Source: an uncultured Candidatus Micrarchaeota archaeon (GTDB lineage: Archaea > Micrarchaeota > Micrarchaeia > Anstonellales > Bilamarchaeaceae). Taken from it: a DNA stretch of 64,000 bases. Every line of letters starts with the position of its first letter. Within the stretch, counting starts at the first letter, position 1. Made by a program: the position numbers and the translations under genes. Location of the stretch: positions 928,001 to 992,000 of the forward strand of contig OY970229.1 of assembly GCA_963714085.1 (NCBI GenBank), given 5' to 3'. Under the pieces are notes generated by a model that worked only from the letters and a program-made list of their open reading frames with translations, had not been told where the DNA came from and did not search any database. Of this stretch, positions 18,277 through 62,767 are shown piece by piece.

Positions 18277-20050
18277 AGACCAGGAAATAGACCGCCGCGC
18301 ATGCGGCAGCTATGATGACGACGACCACGATGAAGATGCCGCATACGAGCAGTCCGGTCATGTCGCTCTGCACCGTCACCGTGCGGACGACCTCGTCGGC
18401 CTTGTTGCCAGAGGAATCGGAAACGTCATAGGTGATGTTGTAGACTCCTGAGGCATTCGTATCCACCTGGCCCCCGACCACTATCTTGGATGTCAGGTTG
18501 CCGTCATAGTTGTCCCAGGCCGTAGCACCGTCATCGGTGTAGTTCGAGTTGGCCTGGATCGTGACCGAGGAGTTGCCCAAAAGGGTTATCACGGGCTTGG
18601 TGGTGTCCACGACATCCACGGTCCGTGTCAGCTCCACCGCCTTGTTGCCCGCGGCATCCGTCACGTCATAGGTGACGGTGTAGCTGCCGAGCTTGCTGGT
18701 GTTCACAGGATTGTTCACGGTTATCTTGGAGGTCAGGTCCCCGTCATGCTTGTCCGTGGCCGCCGCGCCCGCGTCGCTGTAACTGGAGAACACCTGCAGA
18801 CTGACCGAAGCGTCGCCGTTGAGCGTCAGGACCGGCTTGGTGGTGTCGATCCCAGCCACCGCGTTCGACATATTGTACGCGGTGTTGCCGAGCGAGTCGC
18901 TCACCTTGTAGCAGATCCGCTTCCCGTTGTCGGATTCATTGCTGAAGGTGACGGACGCGTAGGGCACGAACGTCTGCGAGGAATCGCACGTCGAACCGGT
19001 GATGACCGCCATCGAAACTGTCCCTGACGACACGGACGCCGAGACGGTCTTGGATTGCGCCGGGGAGGCGTCCGGATTGGAGATGGTTATGCCAGGCGCC
19101 GTGGTCACCCACTGCAGCGTGAAGCTGCTGCTGCCCACATTGCCCGCCAGATCCGTCACCGTGAGTCTTATCACGTAAGTGCCGTCCTTGCTCGCGCTTA
19201 TCGTGGTGCTCGCCGAGCCAGGGCTTCCGAAGCTTATCGTTCCAGGTCCGGAACTCTGGGACCACAGATAAGACGCGATCCCGCTTCCGGAATCCGACGC
19301 CATCCCGTTCTGCGTGAATCGCGAATTCACGGTCTGGTTCGGGCCAGCGCTCACAATCGGCGGCGTGGTGTCGAGATATTGTATCCTTGAGGAGACGGCG
19401 TAATTCTTGTTGCCCACGTTGTCGATCGCCCTGAAGCAGATGTAATCGCCCTGATAGCGCGTGTCGTTGTTAGCCTCCATGGACGTGTCGTTCGTTCCGG
19501 AATTGAGGCTGCTGTCCTGCGACGAACCGCAGTTCGAGTTCGACTCCGCCACCCAGGCGGTGTTCGCCACTCCGGACTCGTTGTCCGACACGCTCGCTGT
19601 TATCGTATCCTGGTTGCTCCAGGTGCCGGTCGCATCCCTGGTTATATTGATGACCGGCGGGGTCGTGTCTATCTCCACGGTGCTGGAACCCGTGTCGCCC
19701 CAGTTGCTTGCGCTGTTCTCGCTTGCGTAGCGTATATAGGAGACCCCCTCGGTCGATACCATGATGGGCGTGCTGTAAAGAGTCCCGTTGTTTGTGGGAT
19801 CGCAGATGTTCGTCGTATCGGTGCAATACGTAGTGTTCGCGCAGTTCGAGCCTCCGGGGACGCACGTGAGCGTGACGTACACCGGATACCTTGTCCAGGT
19901 GCCGAAATTATATGCGGTGCTATTCGCAGTCCCGCTGGATGTCGTCGTCGGGTCCGTTGCGTATGAAAGCGCCGAGAACAAGATGATAGCGAGGGCAAAG
20001 AACATCAGATGTCGGGAACCGCTCGACCTCATATGCACCATGGTGGGCAC
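18242..20050 (-). CDS. Secreted, membrane-anchored Ig-like repeat protein (PKD-like and two DUF5011-like domains)
   Basis: Signal peptide; two DTTKPV(L/I)TL.G...D.GA.A.D..DG.LTSKI units; C-terminal TM. Confidence 0.85.
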   Translation of the reverse strand: MPTMVHMRSSGSRHLMFFALAIILFSALSYATDPTTTSSGTANSTAYNFGTWTRYPVYVTLTCVPGGSNCANTTYCTDTTNICDPTNNGTLYSTPIMVSTEGVSYIRYASENSASNWGDTGSSTVEIDTTPPVINITRDATGTWSNQDTITASVSDNESGVANTAWVAESNSNCGSSQDSSLNSGTNDTSMEANNDTRYQGDYICFRAIDNVGNKNYAVSSRIQYLDTTPPIVSAGPNQTVNSRFTQNGMASDSGSGIASYLWSQSSGPGTISFGSPGSASTTISASKDGTYVIRLTVTDLAGNVGSSSFTLQWVTTAPGITISNPDASPAQSKTVSASVSSGTVSMAVITGSTCDSSQTFVPYASVTFSNESDNGKRICYKVSDSLGNTAYNMSNAVAGIDTTKPVLTLNGDASVSLQVFSSYSDAGAAATDKHDGDLTSKITVNNPVNTSKLGSYTVTYDVTDAAGNKAVELTRTVDVVDTTKPVITLLGNSSVTIQANSNYTDDGATAWDNYDGNLTSKIVVGGQVDTNASGVYNITYDVSDSSGNKADEVVRTVTVQSDMTGLLVCGIFIVVVVIIAAACAAVYFLVFKKRHSKHPPH

Positions 20051-35607: not shown

Positions 35608-36534
35608 TCAGAGGTTGACCTTGAGGCCGAGCTCCTTCTTGAGCTCGCGGTACCTGTTCCTGATGGTGACCTCGGTCACTCCTGCGACGTCGGCGACCTC
35701 CTTCTGGGTCTTCTTCTCTCCGAACATCGCGCTCGCGATGTAGAGCGCCGCGGCGGCCACGCCGGTCGGTCCCCTGCCTGAGATCAAACCTTTCTTGAGC
35801 GCCTTCTTTATTAGCCTGGTGGCCTCCTCCTGCACCTTGCCGCCCAGCCTGAGCGCGGTCGCGAACTTCGGCACGTACTGCGCCGGGTCGGTGAGCGGGA
35901 CGTTCACGTCCAGCTCGGTCTTCAGGAACCGGTATGCCCTGCCGATCTCCTTCTTCTCTATGCCGGACGCCCTGGATATCTCGTCCAACGTCCTGGGTAT
36001 GCCCTGCATCCTGCAGATGGCGTAGATGACCGCTGCGACCACGGATTCGATCAGCCTTCCGCGGATGAGCTCCTCCTTAACCGCCCTCCTGTAGAGGAGC
36101 GCGGCGGACTCCTTGATGTTCTCCGGAAGCCCCAGCGAGGATGCCACGCGGTCGAGCTCTGCTAGCGCGATGACCAGGTTCCTCTCCATGGACGTTGCGA
36201 TGGACACCCTCTTGTGCCATTTCCTCATCCTGTAGAGCTGGGCCTGCTTCTTGGGCGATATCTTCCCGCCCCTGATGTCCCTGTTATATTGGTCGATCTC
36301 GGTCACGAGTCCCTTGTTCGGCCTCATGTACTTTATCGGAGCGCCGCCCCTGGCCCTCTTGCCCTTCTGCTCGGCGTCGAAGGCGCGCCACTCCGGACCT
36401 AGGTCTTGGATGTTCTCGGCGATGATGAGCCCGCACTGGGCGCAGAGTACCTCTCCTTTCTCGTAGTCCCTGATGAGCCTGCTCCCCTTGCACTCAGGGC
36501 ATTTTGATACAGTCGTAGCTGCTTGTGTTGCCAT
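35608..36534 (-). CDS. tfb: Transcription initiation factor IIB
   Basis: CPEC..C..CG zinc ribbon, GPEWRAF B-reader, two cyclin repeats, VTEVTIRNRY; GGAGG RBS. Confidence 0.97.
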   Translation of the reverse strand: MATQAATTVSKCPECKGSRLIRDYEKGEVLCAQCGLIIAENIQDLGPEWRAFDAEQKGKRARGGAPIKYMRPNKGLVTEIDQYNRDIRGGKISPKKQAQLYRMRKWHKRVSIATSMERNLVIALAELDRVASSLGLPENIKESAALLYRRAVKEELIRGRLIESVVAAVIYAICRMQGIPRTLDEISRASGIEKKEIGRAYRFLKTELDVNVPLTDPAQYVPKFATALRLGGKVQEEATRLIKKALKKGLISGRGPTGVAAAALYIASAMFGEKKTQKEVADVAGVTEVTIRNRYRELKKELGLKVNL

Positions 36535-36602
36535 GTCAAAACCTCCCGATTCGCATAATAAGTTTTATAAATGTTACTCAGACGGGGTTTATATACCTGC
36601 GC

Positions 36603-36663
36603 TTTTTTCGGGCCTTGCACATAAACTATGGCCTGCACATAAATTGGGGGGTTTGCACATAAA
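36603..36663 (+). repeat. Left end: TTTTTTC duplication plus three TGCACATAAA motifs
   Basis: Motifs start at 36616, 36634 and 36654. Confidence 0.9.
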
Positions 36664-36685
36664 TTAAGGGAAAAAAATAATAACT

Positions 36686-36925
36686 TCATATCCGGTGTTT
36701 CTCAATGAAGGTAAGGAGTTCTCCTATTGAGTGAAACATTGCGCTATCCCCGCTTTGGGCGTGTTCGACACTTCCTTCCCAAAAGTGTCTAGTGAACCTT
36801 TTGCTCAGGGCGTTTGAGCGTATGTCGTGCCCTCTTGCCGATAGTTTAGCCTTGCTCATATCCCAAAGCCGGATTACAAATTTCGGCATGTCGCCCTTTC
36901 TTTTTACTTCGATTGTACTCTTCAT
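36686..36925 (-). CDS. Small hypothetical protein (element cargo)
   Basis: 79-aa ORF with GAGG RBS-like sequence; directly follows the 135-aa gene. Confidence 0.6.
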   Translation of the reverse strand: MKSTIEVKRKGDMPKFVIRLWDMSKAKLSARGHDIRSNALSKRFTRHFWEGSVEHAQSGDSAMFHSIGELLTFIEKHRI

Positions 36926-36935
36926 GTAATCGCCT

Positions 36936-37343
36936 CTAAACTTTCCCTTTTTTCGCCTTGAAGCTCTTCGCGTACTCCTCCAAAGACTTGCCAGTCAGAT
37001 CCTTGACTTGCTTGTCTGCCCAATAGCTCAAACTGACCTTATTGTCATGAGTCCACTGGAGGCTCGCACGCTTTCCGGTGAAAAATCCGGCAGATCCCTT
37101 CTTATCCTTGCCCATCTCGACCCAAAGTTCGTCGACCCGCTCTTTTGGTATCGGAGCTCCGTTAGCCTCGTTGTAGATTCGGCTCCAGAGCTCCATGCGG
37201 TCCTTCATCCAGCTAGGAATCTCGGCTTCGAGTCCCTCCTCCTGAACCTGCAATTCGGCCAAAAGAGTCGACGCTTCTTCCAACAGTCCCTGTATTTTCT
37301 CGATTTTTTCTTTTTCCTTGGTCATAAAATCCTCCTCCGCCAT
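36936..37343 (-). CDS. Hypothetical protein (element cargo), coiled N-terminus
   Basis: 135-aa ORF downstream of an AT-rich, TATA-containing region. Confidence 0.65.
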   Translation of the reverse strand: MAEEDFMTKEKEKIEKIQGLLEEASTLLAELQVQEEGLEAEIPSWMKDRMELWSRIYNEANGAPIPKERVDELWVEMGKDKKGSAGFFTGKRASLQWTHDNKVSLSYWADKQVKDLTGKSLEEYAKSFKAKKGKV

Positions 37344-37480
37344 ACTTATTTTCTTATTAATATTATATAGTATAGATATACTGTTTTATAAATATATCAT
37401 TTTTATCAAGTTTTGAGAATAGAACAATAAAAAAGAATGTCGTCTAAAAGTGTTTTTAAATCTCTTCTTCGTAAGATTAT

Positions 37481-37567
37481 TGGTGTTCGGTACCTTTGGG
37501 GAACCCAAGGCCCCTAACGGGTTCGATCGATGAGATCGCCAACGGTAATGAGCCAAAGGGTGCACCA
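37481..37567 (+). promoter_or_regulatory. Multi-branched structured leader or ncRNA upstream of the RNase H-PIN gene
   Basis: Pairings tggtg/cacca, cctttgg/ccaaagg, gaaccc/gggttc, gatc/gatc; TTTTTAAA about 25 nt upstream. Confidence 0.45.
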
Positions 37568-37577
37568 CATTGTATTC

Positions 37578-39065
37578 ATGGCATCCAAAGTCTACAGCAT
37601 CCCCAGCAAGGATGCATTTCTCGCCTTTAAACAGAGCATTTCGACTCGTTTCACTTTAGATAGTCTGGCGCCCAAACAGCACATGGAAGATTCTTTTTCA
37701 ATCAAGTCCCCGAGCGGCAATCTCAAGGTCGATTACTATGCGTCCGGAAAGCTCGTTTTACAAGGCAACGAAGGCATGCCGGTTTTTATAGCAATGAAAT
37801 CCGAGTTGGACAAGGCGTTCACACCTCTAGAAAAGCAAAGCCCCGCAGAAGCGGCAATCGACTTGTTTTTAATAGATAAAAAGTTCTTTATAGGAGGAGA
37901 TGAAGCAGGAACCGGAGAAACGTTTGGGAGCGCCTTTGTCGGCGTCATTGCATTCGAAAAAGAGTCCCTAAAGCAGCTCGCCGATTTCATTAAAGTGCGC
38001 GATGTGAAAAATGAGGGTAGGCAGGGCATCGGAAGCTTATTCCGTGCTGCCAAAAAACACATGTCAGCTTACAGAATAACCCCGATTACGGCATACCAGC
38101 TCGACATAAACAACAAGAATGTTCTTTTGGACGAGACATATGTTTCGCTTTTAAAAGAGCTGAAAGAGTATCTGCCCGCTTCCTGCATCATCATAGATGA
38201 TTACGGCGCAGGCCCACACTTACGTAATTTTTTGAAGAAATGCGAAGCAGAAGGCGCCCGCGTAATATTGGTCAACAAAGCCGATGCAACATACCTACCG
38301 TCGATGCTTGCTTCTGTTGTTGCCAGGGATGCGCGCCTGGAGGACATGGAGAAGTTGTCAGCAGAAAATGTCCTGATTAATAACGAGACAAACGAAAGCA
38401 TCGCCTTCACAAGCGGAAGCCCCTCAGATTCCAGCACGGAAAAATGGCTTCGGGAGTATAGGAAGATTAATCCGCACTCAGATTTTCCGCCTTTTGTCAG
38501 GAGAAAATGGGCTAATGTAATTCGGATTGAAAAAGAAGTCCCCAAGTCCAGCTTCGAGTACGCTTATACTTGCGCAAACTGCAAAGAAAAGGTGGGCAAA
38601 TCGTATTTTACCTTTCATAAAATAAAGAACGCGACTGAAATGCTATGCGCATGCGGTGCACCCATCGGAAAAAGCGAGATTACTACGACGTTCGGTAAAT
38701 GCTCGTTGGTACTAGATACGAGTGCCGTGATTGGCCGGATTCTTTCAAAGGACTTAGAGACATCGAGGTTAACGGCGGGCATGAAGGTTATACTACCTTC
38801 GTGTCTATATGAAGAATTAGACAAAAAAGAACCGGACAAAAGAAGGGGGGCTCTTCGCGAAATCGATTTTCTGAAGAAGAAAAGCGACGAAGGACTTATT
38901 CGGTTTGAAGAAGCGGATGTGTCTGCATGGGTTGGCATGTCATATGATGATCAAATCAAATATCTAGCGCAAACAAAAAAGGCAATTCTTTTGACCCAAG
39001 ACCGGAATCTCGCTGCTTGGACCGCCCTGGGGACATTCGTGTTCGAGATTAAGGTATTCGGCTAG
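37578..39065 (+). CDS. Fusion: TBP-like domain, RNase HII/HIII nuclease, Zn finger, PIN domain
   Basis: YYASGKLVLQG; IGGDEAGTGETFG, IIDDY, KAD....SMLAS..AR, SGSPSD..T..WL; CANC/CACG; VLDTSAVI...EEL...DD...LLTQDRNL. Confidence 0.8.
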   Translation: MASKVYSIPSKDAFLAFKQSISTRFTLDSLAPKQHMEDSFSIKSPSGNLKVDYYASGKLVLQGNEGMPVFIAMKSELDKAFTPLEKQSPAEAAIDLFLIDKKFFIGGDEAGTGETFGSAFVGVIAFEKESLKQLADFIKVRDVKNEGRQGIGSLFRAAKKHMSAYRITPITAYQLDINNKNVLLDETYVSLLKELKEYLPASCIIIDDYGAGPHLRNFLKKCEAEGARVILVNKADATYLPSMLASVVARDARLEDMEKLSAENVLINNETNESIAFTSGSPSDSSTEKWLREYRKINPHSDFPPFVRRKWANVIRIEKEVPKSSFEYAYTCANCKEKVGKSYFTFHKIKNATEMLCACGAPIGKSEITTTFGKCSLVLDTSAVIGRILSKDLETSRLTAGMKVILPSCLYEELDKKEPDKRRGALREIDFLKKKSDEGLIRFEEADVSAWVGMSYDDQIKYLAQTKKAILLTQDRNLAAWTALGTFVFEIKVFG

Positions 39066-39153
39066 TTTGTTTGTCTATAAAAGACTGGCGATGCGGGCTC
39101 CAAGTAACCAAAAACTAAACTAACAAGAAGCCAGGCGCGGTTATTCTACTCCC

Positions 39154-39178
39154 AACGACTTGACGAACTCCAGTCGTT
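39154..39178. terminator. Hairpin between convergent cargo genes
   Basis: aacgact (39154-60) pairs with agtcgtt (39172-78). Confidence 0.4.
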
Positions 39179-41855
39179 ATTTTGGTGGTTTAAACGCCCT
39201 AAGAATGAATTGTGCTTCGGCAGTATCAAGTTTTAAGGTGGATTCTAGTTTATGCCTCGCATCTATCCTCTTTTTCTTGGCTTCCTGCTCCAACTTCTGA
39301 GCGTCCATCAAGTTATTAACAAGCTCTCTAGAAAGATCTGCTGGGGGTAGAGGCATTTTAATAGAAGAAATTGTGTTCCATTTAACCCTTGTTCTATTGA
39401 CTCCAGTTGCAGTTAATAGTAAATCTGCCCGAACTTCTGGTGTTCGTAATAGCATCCATACGATGTATGGATCAAAACCAGCTTTTGCTTTCAAAATAGT
39501 GAATTCTTTAGCTACTACACAACCGTCAAATTCGGGCAGAACTACTGCCGCCGCACCATACGTTGCGCTGATGTGGCTAATAACAATTTGGCCAGTATGA
39601 ACACGATACAATTCTGGATATTTGCAATCCGATGCTAACTGTTCATCTCCCTTTCTTGCAAATCCGTCATATGTAACTAAGAGAAACGAGACACTTTCAC
39701 TAGATTCAGAAGTATCGATAACATCTTCTTCACTTGGTTCAATAGGTTCGACAAGTTCGGATAGACTAGCTACTCGAAGACCCATATTAGTCCAGTTACG
39801 AATCTGACGGCCTGGAGTTTCAAGGCACGATTTTACATCCATTCTATCGGCGATGCGGGAGGACGGCACTACGAATTTCCTGACTGATGGGTCACCATTT
39901 AGGAATCGGTGGAATAGTTCGACAACCGTTTTTATTTCAGAAATGGCGTTTTGCCGATTAATCGCATCAATGGGAAGAATTCTTTGACGTGCAGGGTCAT
40001 CAAGTCCGATATGTATGCAACCATACATGAATACAGAACCTTGCTCTTGCATGGCTCCCTCTGTTTTAGCATCGTCTTCATCAGCTTTTTTTTCGAGGTA
40101 TAGTAGAGAGGTTTTTACTCTTGCTTGTGAACGCTGAAATGCATCTCCGGGTAGGGAGATGACTGCTTTGACAATGAACTTTTTTCGTATAAAATCTCTA
40201 ACCCAACTCATATCAGAACCACTAAGTATGCCGTCATCGATAACTGTTACCATCCTTCCGCCAGTTTTCAGGAGGTCATAGTATCGTTCGAGAAACATGA
40301 TGCTTGATTTCAAACCTTCTCTCGGAGTTTTCTGGCCATTTTCTAAGTTAAAACCTAGTTCATATTGATCAAGAACCTTAGCCTCGGAAGGCGTTTTTCG
40401 GTCATACGTTTTAGCAAACGGTGGGTTGGTTATAACTACATCTGCAAATCCCTTGCGCCCGATTAATTTCGCTAGTTCTTTTTTTTCAACTTTGACTTCT
40501 AAACTATCATTAGTCAGTATCGTCAGCTCTTTGTCTAGCACATCAGCTTCAAAGATTTTACTTGCTCCATCTCCGTGCAAATGCATATTCATCCGAGTTA
40601 AACGGGACATGTTGGGTTCTTTGCCAGCATCCACTCCGAATAGCTGATTATCGGCAATCGCTTTTTTCATCTCTGCTTTTTGTTTTTGGGATAACGACGA
40701 GTTTGCATCTATTTTAGCCCATATCTCTACCAATGCCTCGATTAAGAATCCGCCCGTTCCGCAACACGCATCTAAAACAACATCACAACGATTTCGTTCG
40801 AGTTGAATGTCTGCAAGGCGTGTCCCCAGCTTAACTATGCTTCTTGGAGTAAAGAATTGACCCAAATCTTTACCTCGCATTGTTGCGTTCAGGAACCTTT
40901 CAAAGAGACGACCATTCAAGTCTGCTTCGATACCGAAAAGATAGATGTGTTCTAATTTCCCTACGACTCCACTTATGATTTCCGGGCTGAGATTGATGTG
41001 ATCATTAGCCTCAAAAATGCGTTTCGTAGTCCCATCTCGGATGGCCTTTTCAAGTTCTTCTAATAGTTCATGGAATTGAATCGTATCCATGGGATTTTGG
41101 GCATCACTTTCTCTGCTTTTAATCCATGAAGAAGAAAAATGAACATCCTCAGCTTTCACATTAAACTGTTTTAGATTAACTAACTCAGGATATTTCGCTC
41201 TGATAAAGCGGTCAGATAAAAGCTTCAGAAAGACTAGCTTTACAAATTCTTCAAAACCCGCAGCTTGACTGATATTACCTTTCTTGTAGATATACTGATG
41301 GCACCAAGCAAAAGTGGCATTGAGTGATTCGAGGGCGGTGGGCTTAAGAAGTTCGTGCATGTCCGTAGCTGGCATTGGCTCTTTCGCTACTAGGTTTTCT
41401 CTGCTCATTAGCCGCTGCAAGTCTTTGAACTTGGGATTAGAGTCAGTAAAGTCATCAAAGTTCATCTTCACGAGTGGCTTATCAGAATCCCACTCATATA
41501 GTTCAGTAAAAACACCATTTGTGATGAGAAAAAACTGAACTGGATTTTCATTTTTGAACGTTTGATTTAGCATCAGGCAGTAACCTGCGCATTGTGACAG
41601 ATACTTGTGTATCGGCTCTGATGGGGATTTGGCATCAATTACTAATCGAGGTTTAGTTTTCAACTTTATGATGTAGTCCGGCGTATATGGAACCTTTTTG
41701 CTTCCCAAAGAAACAACGACGCTCTTAATCTGAGTTTTTGGGATTATCTCACTGTCTTTGAAGCCCAAATCTTGCAGCAATCGATTTAGAAAAAACTGTT
41801 CTACTGACGCCTCGTTCGATAGATTTGTCGAAGCGCAGTATTTGTTTTTGCTCAT
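39177..41855 (-). CDS. Single-chain restriction-modification enzyme (HsdR_N-like nuclease, N6-adenine MTase, specificity-like domain; Type IIG/IIB-like)
   Basis: PDY...IDAK, GQFFTPR, DACCGTGGFL, ITNPPF, C-terminal HsdS-like region. Confidence 0.88.
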   Translation of the reverse strand: MSKNKYCASTNLSNEASVEQFFLNRLLQDLGFKDSEIIPKTQIKSVVVSLGSKKVPYTPDYIIKLKTKPRLVIDAKSPSEPIHKYLSQCAGYCLMLNQTFKNENPVQFFLITNGVFTELYEWDSDKPLVKMNFDDFTDSNPKFKDLQRLMSRENLVAKEPMPATDMHELLKPTALESLNATFAWCHQYIYKKGNISQAAGFEEFVKLVFLKLLSDRFIRAKYPELVNLKQFNVKAEDVHFSSSWIKSRESDAQNPMDTIQFHELLEELEKAIRDGTTKRIFEANDHINLSPEIISGVVGKLEHIYLFGIEADLNGRLFERFLNATMRGKDLGQFFTPRSIVKLGTRLADIQLERNRCDVVLDACCGTGGFLIEALVEIWAKIDANSSLSQKQKAEMKKAIADNQLFGVDAGKEPNMSRLTRMNMHLHGDGASKIFEADVLDKELTILTNDSLEVKVEKKELAKLIGRKGFADVVITNPPFAKTYDRKTPSEAKVLDQYELGFNLENGQKTPREGLKSSIMFLERYYDLLKTGGRMVTVIDDGILSGSDMSWVRDFIRKKFIVKAVISLPGDAFQRSQARVKTSLLYLEKKADEDDAKTEGAMQEQGSVFMYGCIHIGLDDPARQRILPIDAINRQNAISEIKTVVELFHRFLNGDPSVRKFVVPSSRIADRMDVKSCLETPGRQIRNWTNMGLRVASLSELVEPIEPSEEDVIDTSESSESVSFLLVTYDGFARKGDEQLASDCKYPELYRVHTGQIVISHISATYGAAAVVLPEFDGCVVAKEFTILKAKAGFDPYIVWMLLRTPEVRADLLLTATGVNRTRVKWNTISSIKMPLPPADLSRELVNNLMDAQKLEQEAKKKRIDARHKLESTLKLDTAEAQFILRAFKPPK

Positions 41856-42190
41856 TTCCCCGCCTTCCTTATCCGATCTTTCGACGCTTCAATAACCTTT
41901 TGTCCTACAGGGCAACTACTAAATTCCTTTTTGCTCCAATCAATCATTTTGTGCTCATCAAAGAGCATATCACAATCATCACAAATATACGCATGAGCTA
42001 TTATCGAAACAAGACCGGAATGCGCGTCACCTTCGGAATCCATGCTGCAAAAAGGGAAGTCGCCTCCATTTAATCTAGGAGAAGCATGGGTGCCACACCA
42101 TCCGGTTACATCTACGATACAGCCGCTTCCACAATTTGGGCATTTGCCTTCTAGAAATGCTTTTTTATTAAACTTTTCGTCACTTCCCAT
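41852..42190 (-). CDS. Cys-rich zinc-finger protein (cargo)
   Basis: CPNCG and CDDC; overlaps the R-M start by 4 nt. Confidence 0.6.
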   Translation of the reverse strand: MGSDEKFNKKAFLEGKCPNCGSGCIVDVTGWCGTHASPRLNGGDFPFCSMDSEGDAHSGLVSIIAHAYICDDCDMLFDEHKMIDWSKKEFSSCPVGQKVIEASKDRIRKAGK

Positions 42191-42195
42191 TTACC

Positions 42196-42426
42196 TCACC
42201 TAATCCACCAAATCCAGATACCTCTCCCGGCCTTCAGTTGTTTACCATTAATGCGGTTATCGCCTCGTAACATAAGTAAGCGATGAAAAACCTTGGTGCG
42301 TGTGATTTTCTTATCTTTAAAACGGTCTACGATTTCCATAGTTTCAAGAGGTTCTTGTGCCATTCTTATGATGGAATAAAGATTTTCACGAACAAGATCT
42401 TCTTTGCCGTACTTTTTTCCATCCAT
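42196..42426 (-). CDS. Small winged-helix-like protein (cargo)
   Basis: 76 aa, helical with a terminal GIWIWW beta-wing; heads the R-M operon. Confidence 0.6.
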   Translation of the reverse strand: MDGKKYGKEDLVRENLYSIIRMAQEPLETMEIVDRFKDKKITRTKVFHRLLMLRGDNRINGKQLKAGRGIWIWWIR

Positions 42427-42546
42427 AGATAAAAGTATATATTGATAGATTTATGAATCAACCTTTCCATAAATACTTCAAAATATTAATCGATGAATGT
42501 ATAGAACTAGCTATAACTCATAAAACAGAAGAAGGCACAAAGAGAG

Positions 42547-43335
42547 CTATGGTTTCTCGGGTTTTGGAGGGTAATAGACCCCGATTATTAGCCACTCATT
42601 CCAATTACTCTCTGTTCCTACAAAAAAGTACACGTCCTTTTTAGATAAAAATTCCGTCTTATACTTCTGGACACATTTTTGAATTGCGGTTTCTTCAGTT
42701 CCATATTTCTTTAGCATCTGCCGATATAACTCCAACAATTCCCAGTCTTCTACCATCATATCATGACCAGGACAGGTAGCATCACACCTAAACTTATATG
42801 CAAAACGGTAAGGGATTTTGTCTAATGGACTTTTGTATGGTTCCCCCCCCAATGTCTTCTGCTTTCCTTCGACCAAATCTTTTTCCCAACCTCTTGCTTT
42901 TTCAATTGGTTCGGCATAAAAGTCGTCGATAAATTCTGGGTGGATGAATCCCAAAGACGTGTGGTCCTTATCATACTCGGTTTTAAGTGCCTCTATTGAT
43001 GGCATTAAGAATGGTAATAAGAACGTGTTTCGTTTTTTCCAGTCGCCTTCTGTAGGGATATACTTTCCAGTACGTACAATCGTATCGTCCTTGACTTTAT
43101 GACTTTCTTTCCGTTTGAACTTTTCATTCGGGTTGTGCTCCGCATTTACCTCGATCAACTCGAATTTATGAGGTCTTTTTTCATAAGGTAAATCGAAAAA
43201 TCTTACCGGGTATATCCTAATCCATTCTTTAGCGTCAATGTCAATTCCGGCCATACAAGCCGTTCGTTCATATTTTCGACTAAGGTTGGGGTATGTTTTT
43301 ACCAAAAGAAGAACCTTCCTTCTTTTGAATGTCAT
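42547..43335 (-). CDS. Uncharacterised DUF488-associated protein
   Basis: VKTYP..S.KY..T.C.AGI, WIRIYPV.F, SLG, KF.C....C.GH....DWE, F.VGT; 4-nt overlap with the DUF488 gene. Confidence 0.7.
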   Translation of the reverse strand: MTFKRRKVLLLVKTYPNLSRKYERTACMAGIDIDAKEWIRIYPVRFFDLPYEKRPHKFELIEVNAEHNPNEKFKRKESHKVKDDTIVRTGKYIPTEGDWKKRNTFLLPFLMPSIEALKTEYDKDHTSLGFIHPEFIDDFYAEPIEKARGWEKDLVEGKQKTLGGEPYKSPLDKIPYRFAYKFRCDATCPGHDMMVEDWELLELYRQMLKKYGTEETAIQKCVQKYKTEFLSKKDVYFFVGTESNWNEWLIIGVYYPPKPEKP

Positions 43336-44135
43336 ATATCTACCACCCTGAACCCATCCCGAATCAATTTCTTTTTTATGATGCTCCTATGGCATTTGTT
43401 AACGTCCTTTTCAAAACACATCATCACCGTTTTCCTTACCTGAGCCAACCCTTCAAGATCCAACAACTGTTCTTGAGATTCGGGTTTTGATAGTGCTTCT
43501 TCGTACTCTTTAAAAAACTCAGGATAATCCCACCCCTCCCAAAGCTTATGTCTAAGTTCCCTTGGCGATCCTAAAAGCGGGAAGTGTTTGTATACAATCC
43601 CGTTTTCCTGAAGTGCTTTCGACAACGCTGATTTTGCAAAACCATTTTTCCTACTAAAAGCGAGTTCTCTTACGTCGATTACCTGCTGAACCCCATTTTC
43701 CTTCAAAACACCGACAAATTCTAATAGATTCTTGCCTTCGTATCCGATGGTAAATACTACAGTGTCGCTTTTATGCGGGAGATACCAGTAAGTCAAGGTC
43801 CCTTCCTTCCTTCTTTGAAGCTTAACCTCTTCTTCAAGTCGCCTAACCCATGAGTTGTTTGGGACTTCTTGTGGCAGACCGAGTTTGGTTTTTATATCAT
43901 GCCACGTCATGCCTGCCTTTGTTTTGTTCAATAAGTTCGTGATCTTAATTTTGAACTCTTCATACGTCAATACGTCCGATTTTATTACGACAAGTCCTTC
44001 CGTAGTTACATGAGTTTTGAGGTTTTGGCCTTCTTTCCATCCGAGTAATGCTATGTCGCTGGGTGGGATGGTTATTACCCATTTTGTATACTCTTTATCA
44101 TCGACCTTTCTGGATAGCTGTTTTTGTAATTGCAT
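43332..44135 (-). CDS. AbrB-like DNA-binding domain, HTH-like domain and DUF488 fusion
   Basis: ITIP......LGWKEG; FTIGYEG, IDVR....SRKNGF.K, LGSP, MCFE.....CHR. Confidence 0.82.
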   Translation of the reverse strand: MQLQKQLSRKVDDKEYTKWVITIPPSDIALLGWKEGQNLKTHVTTEGLVVIKSDVLTYEEFKIKITNLLNKTKAGMTWHDIKTKLGLPQEVPNNSWVRRLEEEVKLQRRKEGTLTYWYLPHKSDTVVFTIGYEGKNLLEFVGVLKENGVQQVIDVRELAFSRKNGFAKSALSKALQENGIVYKHFPLLGSPRELRHKLWEGWDYPEFFKEYEEALSKPESQEQLLDLEGLAQVRKTVMMCFEKDVNKCHRSIIKKKLIRDGFRVVDI

Positions 44136-44145
44136 ATCTCTGTCT

Positions 44146-44235
44146 TAGGTACCAATATTTATATATCTTGGTAGGTACCTACATAGTATTTAAATCAATA
44201 GGTACCTAATATATCTGTAAGCTGTTAGGTACCTA
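44146..44235. promoter_or_regulatory. Four palindromic TAGGTACCTA-type boxes in a divergent promoter
   Basis: Copies at 44146 (TAGGTACCAA), 44172, 44199 and 44226, spaced 26/27/27 nt, interleaved with TATA-like tracts. Confidence 0.8.
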
Positions 44236-44244
44236 AGATATGAA

Positions 44245-45471
44245 ATGATACACTGGATGATTGAAATGCCTGAACAAAACCCACCCTGCAAGCACTGCGG
44301 CTCTCCCTTCGTCATCCGAGACAGCGTAATCCAAACCGCCGAATGGGAGAACGGGATATACACCTGCTGCCGATGCATGAGGAGCTTCACCCAAAAGGTC
44401 GAGAAAAAGATGGAAATCGAAAGACCCGAAGGCTTCCAGTCCTTCCTCCCTCCGCCCAGCCCTACAGCGCCTATCCAATGGTCCCAATACAACGAGGCTC
44501 AGGTGCGCGAGAAGCTCCTGTTCCTCGAAATCCTCCAAGACCTGTGCTCCAGGCTTCCGGACGGAGAACCGGGCAAGGTAGGCCGTCCCAGGGCTTCCAC
44601 AAGAGAGATGGTCTTCTGCATGGTAGCCAAGCTCTACGAGGGACTGTCCTCCCGCAGGGTGTCTTCGGACCTCCAAATAGCCGCCCAAAGGGGCCATATC
44701 GCCAAGGTCCCGCATTTCAATACTGTCCTCAAGTACTTCAACGATCCCGGCATGGCGCCGCTCCTGACCGGGCTTATCCAGCTCTCATCGCTTCCTCTGA
44801 GGGACTTCGAGACCACGTTCGCGGTGGATGCAAGCGGCCTCAGCTCCGCGTTCTATTCGAGATGGTTCGATTACAGGTTCGGGCATCTCGACGGAAGGGA
44901 AAGCAAGGCCCACGACTGGATAAAAATCCACGTCGTCTGCGGGGTGAAGTCAAACATCGTGACCTCAATTGTTGTCACCGACGGCAAGACCAGTGACTGC
45001 CCCCAATTTCCCGCGCTCCTGAAGACCACGGCGGAGAACTTCGACGTCAAGGAAATCACGGCGGATAAGGGTTATTCAAGTCGGCGGAATATCGACGCGG
45101 CATTCGAGATCGGCGCCGTCCCGCTCATCCCATTCAAGTCCAATACTACGGGAAACGCGGGCGGAAGCCTAGCCTGGAGCAAGATGTACCATTACTACCA
45201 GCTGCAAAGGGAGGCTTTCCTGGCTCGGTACCACCAGCGGAGCAACGTAGAAAGCACGTTCAGCGCCCTGAAAAGGAAGTTCTCGACCAAGCTTATGCTG
45301 AAAAACGAGCCCGCCCAGGTCAACGAAGCCCTTGCCATGATCCTTTGCCACAACATCTGCGTCCTGATCCGGGAAGCGTTCGAGAACGGGATTTCTACTG
45401 AGTTCGAGGGGGTTGCACATAAAGTTCCGGTGCTGCACATAAAGGAGGGGATAACGTTTGGAAATCGCTAA
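44245..45471 (+). CDS. IS4/IS5-superfamily DDE transposase with N-terminal zinc ribbon
   Basis: CKHC/CCRC, GRP, AVDASG, KIH, ADKGY, Y(2)R(3)E(6)K signature YHQRSNVESTFSALK, CHNI. Confidence 0.9.
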   Translation: MIHWMIEMPEQNPPCKHCGSPFVIRDSVIQTAEWENGIYTCCRCMRSFTQKVEKKMEIERPEGFQSFLPPPSPTAPIQWSQYNEAQVREKLLFLEILQDLCSRLPDGEPGKVGRPRASTREMVFCMVAKLYEGLSSRRVSSDLQIAAQRGHIAKVPHFNTVLKYFNDPGMAPLLTGLIQLSSLPLRDFETTFAVDASGLSSAFYSRWFDYRFGHLDGRESKAHDWIKIHVVCGVKSNIVTSIVVTDGKTSDCPQFPALLKTTAENFDVKEITADKGYSSRRNIDAAFEIGAVPLIPFKSNTTGNAGGSLAWSKMYHYYQLQREAFLARYHQRSNVESTFSALKRKFSTKLMLKNEPAQVNEALAMILCHNICVLIREAFENGISTEFEGVAHKVPVLHIKEGITFGNR

Positions 45472-45548
45472 TTTGTGTGCAATGCCCTTTTTTCGGGATT
45501 TGCACATAAACTAGGGGCTGCACATAAATCGGGCTGCTTGCACATAAA
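45414..45548. repeat. Right end plus adjacent orphan left end: six TGCACATAAA-type motifs
   Basis: Direct copies at 45414, 45434, 45501, 45519, 45539; inverted copy TTTGTGTGCA at 45472. Confidence 0.9.
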
Positions 45549-45578
45549 ATAAGGGATAAAACAATCGACGTCCGGGCT

Positions 45579-61183: not shown

Positions 61184-62767
61184 ATGCGCCAACCGACGCT
61201 ATTGCTCCTTCTCTGCCTCATGGTTTTTTTCGCAGCCGGCTGCCTGATGAAGCCACTCTCCGGAGGGACCGGCACTAACGCGAGCCCAGCGCCAAAGTCA
61301 GGCTGCGCGTACCAGAATCCTCCGTGCAGCCAGGGCTACGCATGCGTGAACAACACCTGTGCCGCAATTCCGGCCAACGCCTCCCCCGCGGTTCCGGCTC
61401 CAGCCAACGTCTCACCGCAGTCCGGCTGCGCCTATGATAATCCGGCCTGCGGTTCAGATTACGACTGCGTGAACAATTCCTGCGTGGAGAAGACGATATG
61501 CGGCAAATTCGGCTGCCAGGCCGGAGAGAACTATAGCAATTGCTGCACAGACTGCGGTTGCCCGGTAGGGTACACCTGCGGTACTGACAACGCATGCTCG
61601 CTGAGCGTGGGGCAGATAGTCGTAGAGAACGTGTCCGTGGTCCCGCTTTCGCCCGTGGTGCTGTACGCCGTGCCGCACAAGACCATAGAGAAGGGCGTGG
61701 GCCCGGTGATCCGGGTCACCCTGGAAAACAGCGGCAACGCCCCCATATCCGACCTGATCATCAAGCCCGAGGTCCAGGACTACACCGGGATAGACATATA
61801 CGATGTCGGAGCCATCGCGCCAGGGGCCTCGCTCGTGTTCAACTACACCCCGGCATTCGCCGAGAATCCATTGGCCGCTGTCGGCAACTCCACGGCAAGG
61901 CTCGAGCTCGGCCTGCAGTATTCCTCCCAAGGCGCGAACGGCACAGGCTCGTTCGCGGCTGAAATAGCCCTGCAGCCGGTGAATTATTTCGACTGGAGGG
62001 TCCCGGAGGCCGCCGCCGCATGGGCGGATTCAGACGACCCGAGCGTGAGCGGCCTGGCGCTCGACGCGACCCTCGGCGTCCAGCCTAAGACGGACGCCGA
62101 CACGGAGCGCGAGGCGCGGCAGATATTCGGAGACCTCCAGGCGCGCACAATCCAGGTCCGGGGCGGCCAGGGCGCGTGCTATTCGGACACGCTCGCCTTC
62201 CCTGCGGACGTGCTCAAGGCGCGCTCCGGGGACTGCGCCGGGCTGTCGGTGCTTTTCGCGGCCTCCCTAGAGGCGGCGGGGATCAGGAGCGCGGTGATAA
62301 AGACGCCGGACGCTGTGCTCGCCGCTTATGCAGATCCGGAAGGCTCGCTGGTACCTATAGACATGAGGGACCTCGTGGGCTCGAATTTCTCCGGTGCGCT
62401 GGCGGACGGGGCCTCGGAGTTCTCGAACTCGTCCTCTGACGCAGTGGTCGTCTATCCAGAGGACCAGTGGGGCCTTGGCGTGAAGAAGGTGATGCCCGGG
62501 ACCCAGGCGCCCTCGTCCATAATAACCACCACGGCGCAGACCTGCCGGCTGCTTCCAGGCACGCTCACGGTCAACTATTGGTTCGTCAACAACGGCTACG
62601 ACTCAGGAAGGCGTTGCGTGAATGCGACGGTCTACCAGGGCACCGATATCTATACATCCAAGCTGTCCTGCGTGGACGTGTACGTGAACGACAAGAAGAA
62701 CGTGACCTTCGACATAACCGGGCTGCCCACGAACACGAGCCTCGATGCGAATTGCTCGCTGGACTAG
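61184..62767 (+). CDS. Secreted Cys-rich protein with transglutaminase-like domain
   Basis: FAAGC signal, two GCAY.NP.C..Y.CVNN.C repeats, P.DVL....GDC...SVL.AASLEA.GI. Confidence 0.7.
   Translation: MRQPTLLLLLCLMVFFAAGCLMKPLSGGTGTNASPAPKSGCAYQNPPCSQGYACVNNTCAAIPANASPAVPAPANVSPQSGCAYDNPACGSDYDCVNNSCVEKTICGKFGCQAGENYSNCCTDCGCPVGYTCGTDNACSLSVGQIVVENVSVVPLSPVVLYAVPHKTIEKGVGPVIRVTLENSGNAPISDLIIKPEVQDYTGIDIYDVGAIAPGASLVFNYTPAFAENPLAAVGNSTARLELGLQYSSQGANGTGSFAAEIALQPVNYFDWRVPEAAAAWADSDDPSVSGLALDATLGVQPKTDADTEREARQIFGDLQARTIQVRGGQGACYSDTLAFPADVLKARSGDCAGLSVLFAASLEAAGIRSAVIKTPDAVLAAYADPEGSLVPIDMRDLVGSNFSGALADGASEFSNSSSDAVVVYPEDQWGLGVKKVMPGTQAPSSIITTTAQTCRLLPGTLTVNYWFVNNGYDSGRRCVNATVYQGTDIYTSKLSCVDVYVNDKKNVTFDITGLPTNTSLDANCSLD

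Follow-up and report, generated by a model that had tools for sequence, protein, structure and literature searches.

The 64,000-nt stretch of DNA analysed here (the window) comes from an uncultured Candidatus Micrarchaeota archaeon (GCA_963714085.1, contig OY970229.1, positions 928,001-992,000, forward strand), whose genome, G000, is a single contig of 1.57 Mb. Between the host genes for TFB (tfb) and a DUF655 protein lies an IS903-like DDE cargo transposon of 8,876 bp (36611-45486), followed 9 bp further on by a second left end. The features of the locus are:

35608..36534, minus strand: host tfb (TFIIB), whose promoter is the one targeted; intact, with Pfam PF00382 and PF08271
36564..36571, minus strand: proximal TATA-like box upstream of tfb, not abutted by the element; 13.9 bits with the host promoter matrix, also in G001 and G002
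36588..36601, minus strand: distal tfb TATA box (36588-36595) and 6-nt BRE position (36596-36601); 10.1 bits at the modal offset of the family
36602..36610, plus strand: left copy of the 9-bp target-site duplication (TSD), CTTTTTTCG; identical to 45487-45495
36611..36676, plus strand: left end 1 (LE1), with terminal GGCCT and three TGCACATAAA motifs in 18/20 spacing; same layout in relatives
36686..44135, no strand: low-GC cargo region with RNase HII/III-like, fused R-M and PDC-M19B/M19A genes and small ORFs
37530-39065, cargo: RNase HII/III-like protein, weak C-terminal match
39177-41855, cargo: fused HsdR_N-methyltransferase-specificity R-M protein
42547-44135, cargo: PDC-M19B/M19A pair, DUF488, candidate defence
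44245..45471, plus strand: DDE transposase of 408 aa, IS903-group-like, PF01609; 3' end overlaps the right end
45414..45486, plus strand: right end, with direct motifs at 45414 and 45434, an inverted terminal motif at 45472-45481 and terminal ATGCC; same layout in L031-L033
45487..45495, plus strand: right TSD copy, which is also the junction spacer; identical to 36602-36610
45496..45561, plus strand: orphan left end 2 (LE2), with GGATT and three intact motifs but not followed by any element body; its ortholog is the solo end of L169
45579..46154, minus strand: host DUF655 gene; adjoins tfb in the element-free relatives G001 and G002

Three relatives found through their transposases share the ends of the element, with GGCTT and three direct motifs on the left, and two direct motifs, one inverted motif and AAGCC on the right. 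The right end is thus no simple mirror of the left, and in G000 the motifs at 45414 and 45434 are oriented as the left-end motifs, only the terminal one at 45472 being inverted. Two of these three relatives are flanked by 9-bp duplications at unrelated loci, and the third stops at a contig edge. A duplication length of 9 fits best in 23 of the 28 end pairs listed; of the other five, one is a contig end, two are off by one and two do not match.

The transposase has an N-terminal zinc ribbon of cysteine residues, the residues D195, D274 and E336, and YREK. D195, D274, Y329, R332, E336 and K343 are invariant in all 60 of 60 aligned homologues. DDE_Tnp_1 was the sole Pfam result (PF01609, 74.6 bits), and the best curated model, the IS5-family model NF033579, which we assume to stand for the IS903 group, scored 118.7 bits, below its cut-off of 140. 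The best plasmid match was ISVa2, with approximately 25% identity over 81-90% of the length. A structure model of the transposase had a pLDDT of 87. Compared by Foldseek, this predicted fold gave its best TM score with Tn5 transposase (0.46), and ISCth4 came first by E-value with a TM score of 0.30-0.33. A sequence search of the PDB yielded no relative. Its closest named relatives belong to Candidatus Micrarchaeota, tblastn detected no further copy in the host genome, where it is single-copy, and a scan of viral contigs for the end pattern gave 0 matches.

The cargo is defence-like, with the R-M protein, the PDC-M19A/B pair and the RNase H-like protein as candidates. The RNase HII/HIII-like nuclease (37530-39065) has additional N- and C-terminal domains and no PADLOC match, and its C-terminal part presumably bears a weak likeness to a PIN-type domain. 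The DUF488 protein of the PDC-M19 pair has an additional N-terminal part. No tyrosine or serine recombinase was found among the nine ORFs of the element that were scanned. Elsewhere in the window, at 81-1570, 18377-18683 and 61296-61482, there are intragenic-looking repeats with periods of 285, 240 and 123 nt, probably in surface proteins.

Of the two boxes upstream of tfb, the element adjoins the distal one. This TATA box, 15-22 nt beyond the end of the element, is directed away from it. Its BRE is weak in G000, and the distal BRE-TATA box is kept in the element-free alleles of G001 and G002. In many relatives (L258-L286) the region upstream of tfb also appears by eye to hold two TATA boxes about 24 nt apart; these were scored in G000, G001 and G002.

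The duplicated left end and the alleles of the tfb site

An earlier note on this DNA had described positions 45487-45559 as a direct copy of 36602-36674, and the two do differ at exactly 10 of 73 positions. The repeated 73 nt consist of the TSD (9) and the left end (64). The motifs are intact, as the note had claimed: 0 of 30 motif positions are changed against 10 of 36 non-motif positions (P=0.0012 for random placement). The 18/20 spacing, too, is the same in both copies, with motifs at 36616/36634/36654 and 45501/45519/45539. The reported absence of cargo before DUF655 also holds, since LE2 is separated by 17 nt from the DUF655 stop (45579), and there is no right end either. No other 73-mer in the 1.57-Mb genome attains 40/73 identity, and TGCACATAAA occurs in exactly ten copies genome-wide, eight of them at the element.

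The junction of the right end with LE2 is likewise present, but not with the 7-bp spacer that had been proposed. The right end stops at 45486 and LE2 begins at 45496, leaving a spacer of 9 bp (45487-45495). A spacer of 7 bp is ruled out by the 9-bp duplication fits across loci together with the identity to 36602-36610. Because related elements define the same termini and 9-bp duplications, the junction spacer CTTTTTTCG is the target-site duplication of the element 36611-45486.

The locus supplies a set of natural alleles: element-free in G002, with a solo end in L169, and stacked in G000. In G001 and G002, which belong to the same genus, tfb and DUF655 are neighbours and no end array lies between them. 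The metagenome locus L169, from a close relative, carries the tfb promoter, 9 bp, a solo left end and DUF655, without cargo, and the solo end keeps a short tail before DUF655 similar to that in G000. Between this end and LE2, 6 of 36 non-motif positions are changed, which is in line with the host third-position divergence of 10/67 and 16/87. Since L169 has such an end by itself at this tfb site, with no cargo, the orphan end was inherited, predates the split of the G000 and L169 hosts, and is likely older than the present element. The same solo end bears out the suggestion of the earlier note that a sister element had used this target before. A separate observation concerns G001, where GGCTTT is found upstream of tfb (L233/L258) at the place at which the spacing rule puts a left end; this is a possible remnant of 6 bp, too short to carry weight.

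LE1 differs from the L169 end at 6 positions and from LE2 at 10, and the 75 other left ends among the matches listed differ from it at 11 or more (nearest 11, median 20). By these distances, LE1 is a close sister of the LE2/L169 end. The conservation of the motifs between LE2 and L169 has a nominal P of 0.004, which becomes about 0.03 in a hand calculation leaving out the 20 pattern-fixed positions, the search that found L169 having fixed 20 of its 30 motif positions. The two 9-mers flanking the G000 element are identical while LE1 and LE2 diverge by 28% (P about 0.05 if equally old), and this mildly favours a later transposition.

Position of the insertions relative to BRE-TATA promoters

Ends were collected by pattern from 35 of 401, 7 of 99, 10 of 29 and 14 of 68 genomes (overlapping samples of the phylum, the family and two orders), and metagenome ends came from at least 121 stretches. 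A promoter matrix, AA-nn-TTTWWAAA, was learned from 651 upstream regions of the host genome with the tfb locus left out. A promoter was called when the matrix reached at least 6 bits at one exact offset, with the TATA box 15-22 nt outside the end and 6 nt beyond the duplication. Junction ends were tallied separately. The count omits one of 51 genome left ends, whose terminus is more than 3 mismatches off, four of 30 right-end rows that are inner left-end motifs, and ends too short or too divergent; the sets retain a few doubtful ends and LE1 of G000.

A promoter is found at the exact offset at 27 of 45 left ends from Micrarchaeota genomes (background 0.0042 per offset). Genome right ends have one in 7 of 22 cases, and over all sets the background per offset is 0.004-0.007. 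For the metagenomes the counts are 26 of 75 left ends and 2 of 7 right ends, among the matches listed. The box at that offset is absent in 18 of the 45 genome left ends, and some of these elements have a box at their other end. Complete elements in genomes have a promoter at one end in 13 of 19 cases, at neither end in 6 and at both ends in none; for complete metagenome elements among the matches listed, it is at one end in 4 of 8 and at both in none. Either end can face the promoter, the left more often.

As the TATA core is nearly symmetric, orientation was tested apart from the matrix. The BRE faces the element: of 55 A/T-box flanks, 39 have AA between the box and the element, against 6 that have it beyond the box. 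The nearest gene is directed away from the element at 37 of 46 promoter-positive ends versus 24 of 53 negative ends (P=0.0004), whereas a looser test on ORF starts, which accepted internal Met codons, gave a non-significant 27/47 versus 18/46 in the control. The signal is one-sided, with AA in 26 of 37 promoter-side flanks against 5 of 27 other flanks, and T adjoins the TSD in 1 of 37. Related genomes are not independent, and the P values overstate accordingly. The layout agrees with that of Pyrococcus, where the BRE is placed at -36 to -32 and the TATA box at -30 to -23 (PMC6640164, in the part of the text available); on this scale the duplication would span about -45 to -37. Selection against gene disruption would not produce a register of a single base.

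Target specificity is thus a position relative to any BRE-TATA promoter and not tfb as such. The genes targeted in relatives, read by eye from translations, include rps19e, gyrB, proteasome alpha, rpl3, thermosome and rps2. Specificity for the tfb locus, as the earlier note had it, is contradicted by relatives lying at unrelated genes with different 9-mers; homologous elements at unrelated loci with different flanks are what the note itself had named as evidence against it. The survey it proposed of tfb-upstream regions found an end array in 0 of 29 other relatives, with two of the stretches short and one misplaced by a frameshift. No sigma70 -35/-10 register was found in 42 promoter-negative metagenome ends among the matches listed, and no tRNA gene lies behind promoter-positive ends in 70 flanks of 250 nt.

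The host genome contains a further insertion in the same register, outside the window. This mini-element of 68 bp (G000:C1:223528-223595) has TGCACCTAAA-type ends and a 9-bp TSD, is in register with a box of 9.3 bits, and sits upstream of an 859-aa ORF. Comparable fused-end elements of 66-117 bp were observed in many relatives. Also observed was an apparent hot spot: in several genomes (L106, L186, L217, L240) the insertions target the promoter of genes from one small family (about 140-165 aa). Three of its members cluster by BLAST and L186 was assigned by eye; some have palindromes downstream of the TATA box.

Stacked ends, order of events and alternative readings

The tandem accretion suspected at this locus is found at others. 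Among the matches listed (165 ends, 136 distinct 9-mers), 13 of the 136 distinct sites have another terminus at a distance of exactly 9 nt, giving end-9bp-end junctions, and other spacers occur once each at 7 and 16 (background 0.0004 per offset). In G063, G440, L106 and L130 the 9-mer of the junction is met again at an end, left or right, that faces a promoter, in G440 on another contig. In L301 (G183:C5, 589-4830) a single 9-mer goes with three features, namely a right end that is orphaned, a methyltransferase/Vsr-like element of 4.1 kb, and one more left end. In G434 and L087 the junction 9-mer is unlike the outer 9-mer, and the SWIM-type elements L101 and L108 have junctions without a promoter flank. 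A separate case is L292 (G389:C94, 178-188), where 9 bp separate two left ends that stand back to back and differ in motif subtype. Six junction sites in 55 genome sites exceed uniform choice among approximately 1,100 strong promoter-like sites, so that hot promoters or an attraction to resident ends must be added. Promoter choice does look uneven: among 820 pairs of driven genes, 8 are homologous, partly by descent.

Insertion by this family probably takes place at a constant distance directly upstream of BRE-TATA promoters, and later copies would then reuse the same 9 bp. The sequences show the ends, the 9-bp duplication, the solo allele, the single-base promoter register over many genes and genomes with its orientation and one-sidedness, and the recurrent junctions; the order of events and the mechanism are inferred as follows. 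An older sister element would have entered the distal tfb promoter site. Its body and right end would then have been deleted nearly to the DUF655 stop, before the hosts of G000 and L169 split. Finally, the present element would have entered between the promoter and the orphan end, duplicating the same 9 bp. The transpososome would be held on the TGCACATAAA arrays and positioned at the promoter. The core promoter is left intact and directed away, so even essential genes would tolerate the insertion.

The duplication need not be a new transposition if cassettes turn over by homologous recombination, the unit of left end, cargo, right end and 9 bp looping out between the 73-nt direct repeats or re-entering a solo TSD and left end from the circle of a relative. 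L169 would then be the post-excision allele. LE1, LE2 and the L169 end are indeed mutually nearest, with near-star distances of 10/6/6, and intact orphan motifs (0/30) are expected from turnover with active ends. However, L169 is no single-crossover hybrid, its pattern being LE2-like, LE1-like and again LE2-like, and the identical 9-mers beside 28% end divergence fit poorly. The element encodes no recombinase, and the promoter register across the family is left unexplained, making this reading unlikely. The alternative offered in the earlier note, a recombination core site with the unit moving as a cassette, is at odds with the lack of a recombinase in the element and with the 136 different 9-mers among the matches listed. 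Host recombination between the 73-nt direct repeats is possible as a secondary route beside insertion at promoters.

A reading that we consider somewhat less probable again is that resident TGCACATAAA arrays attract the transposase, which then inserts 9 bp beyond an end already in place, the orphan serving as landing pad and the promoter explaining the first insertion only. Junctions exceed uniform promoter choice and are present in promoter-negative SWIM-type elements, and the orphan motifs are conserved (nominal P=0.004, about 0.03 as corrected by hand). Yet for most insertions in the promoter register no other end lies nearby (27 of 45 non-junction left ends), and the promoter alone predicts the present site. 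Such attraction may well be an added bias instead of an alternative to promoter-positioned insertion.

The earlier note had also looked to reads spanning the junction. In the assembled contigs of run X1, possibly the source sample, tfb-LE1-cargo and LE2-DUF655 are matched apart from each other, so that each end is confirmed with its own flank; about 45365-45498, across the junction, is left uncovered, which by itself proves nothing. This gap is what speaks for a second end misplaced by repeat collapse in the assembly. Such an artefact is very improbable, as the copies differ at 10 of 73 positions, L169 independently places an LE2-type end beside DUF655, and the same type of junction exists at 12 other sites among the matches listed. 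Sequence-specific targeting of the tfb locus as an att-like site, which the two ends at this site in G000 and the one in L169 might suggest, has practically no probability left and is refuted as a family rule by the many different target genes, the 136 distinct 9-mers among the matches listed and the lack of arrays upstream of tfb in 29 other relatives.

Transposase clades, positioning and known systems

Eighteen transposases from the collected loci fall into two clades (100/100 support), the first mostly with an InsA-like zinc ribbon and the second with a SWIM finger. By our own tally, 10 of 11 rows of the zinc-ribbon clade are at a promoter; the eleventh, L032, has no promoter at its left end and lacks a right flank. 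Of the SWIM-clade elements with both flanks, 0 of 5 are at a promoter, including L215 and L216 in Micrarchaeota genomes. One promoter-positive member of the first clade, L212, has an N-terminus of the SWIM-like type. The association of clade with promoter amounts to two clades, not to sixteen independent cases.

As to how the transpososome finds its position, we lean slightly towards placement by the TFB-TBP-promoter complex. That the transpososome itself reads the BRE-TATA sequence or its bend has a smaller, though still considerable, chance of being right. A predicted complex of the transposase with the TFB core and TBP scored 0.02, too low to weigh either way.

With the IS903 group (IS5 family: IS903, ISVa2; composite Tn903/Tn602) the element has in common a DDE_Tnp_1 transposase with YREK. 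The ends of ISVa2 start with GGCTTTG, as do those of the present family, and the ends of the G000 copy differ by 1 base in 7. The G000 element also shares the 9-bp duplication given for IS903 in the table of PMC2577343 and in the available text of PMC9282650. In contrast to the IS903 target palindrome, WTTYA-N9-TRAAW in the portion of PMC2577343 at hand, the target signal of the family is a one-sided BRE-TATA. A compact IS has one near-perfect pair of inverted repeats, whereas the present unit is of 8.9 kb with approximately 7.5 kb of putative defence cargo. Its ends are asymmetric with 3+3 motifs, unlike those of IS903, and its transposase has an additional N-terminal zinc ribbon and scores under the NF033579 cut-off. 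Failing on the curated cut-off, the compact structure and the target palindrome, the element is not a regular IS903 member.

Promoter targeting itself is shared with the TnGBS ICEs, ISLre2 and ISKra4 as presented in the available part of PMC3942029, with an archaeal promoter replacing that of sigmaA. In that text (Guerillot et al. 2014), TnGBS, the ISLre2 family and the ISKra4 group (p-MULT 3/4) are bacterial, anchored on the sigmaA -35 box, and have Mutator-like transposases; the present family is instead anchored on BRE-TATA, with an enzyme of the IS4/IS5 type that has YREK and is not Mutator-like. As for the circular transposition intermediate of those systems, no joint was seen in the assembled contigs of run X1 (contigs, not raw reads). 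For archaea, the same part of PMC3942029 mentions only ISH6, which duplicates an AT-rich motif itself, and its Discussion names Ty3. The present element differs from Ty3 in being a DNA transposon that inserts upstream of the BRE (about -45 to -37). Ty3 is a retrotransposon that inserts at the start site, its integrase acting at TFIIIB-bound Pol III promoters. By analogy, what the two would have in common is a position set by a complex of the TBP/TFIIB family. In the text available of an archaeal Tn7 preprint (10.1101/2025.07.27.667033) the word 'promoter' is absent. Promoter-aimed insertion is known from bacteria and yeast, and no description of archaeal TATA-anchored transposition or of such ends was found in the literature searched, a body of work whose coverage excludes most subscription papers. 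To this the locus adds a series of alleles at a gene that is essential, together with a count of how often ends stack at one site.

A more far-reaching proposal, which we put forward tentatively and at slightly less than an even chance, is that transposases of the zinc-ribbon clade dock on the complex of TFB, TBP and promoter and insert, exact to the base, at the upstream BRE edge, as an archaeal DNA-transposon counterpart of Ty3. Orphan ends at strong promoters such as that of tfb would then be reusable ports, to which defence cargo is added by transposition and from which it is removed by direct-repeat recombination. Archaeal TBP and TFB are homologous to eukaryotic TBP and TFIIB, so the fixed TATA offset of one 408-aa enzyme makes factor-guided integration testable in a fully reconstitutable system. 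A possible use as a tool would be promoter mapping or integration at safe sites. For the organisms themselves, insertion of this kind would explain how cargo transposons persist in gene-dense DPANN genomes: they would land flush at the core promoters of housekeeping genes, leaving these unbroken, and defence modules would accrete at the same base.
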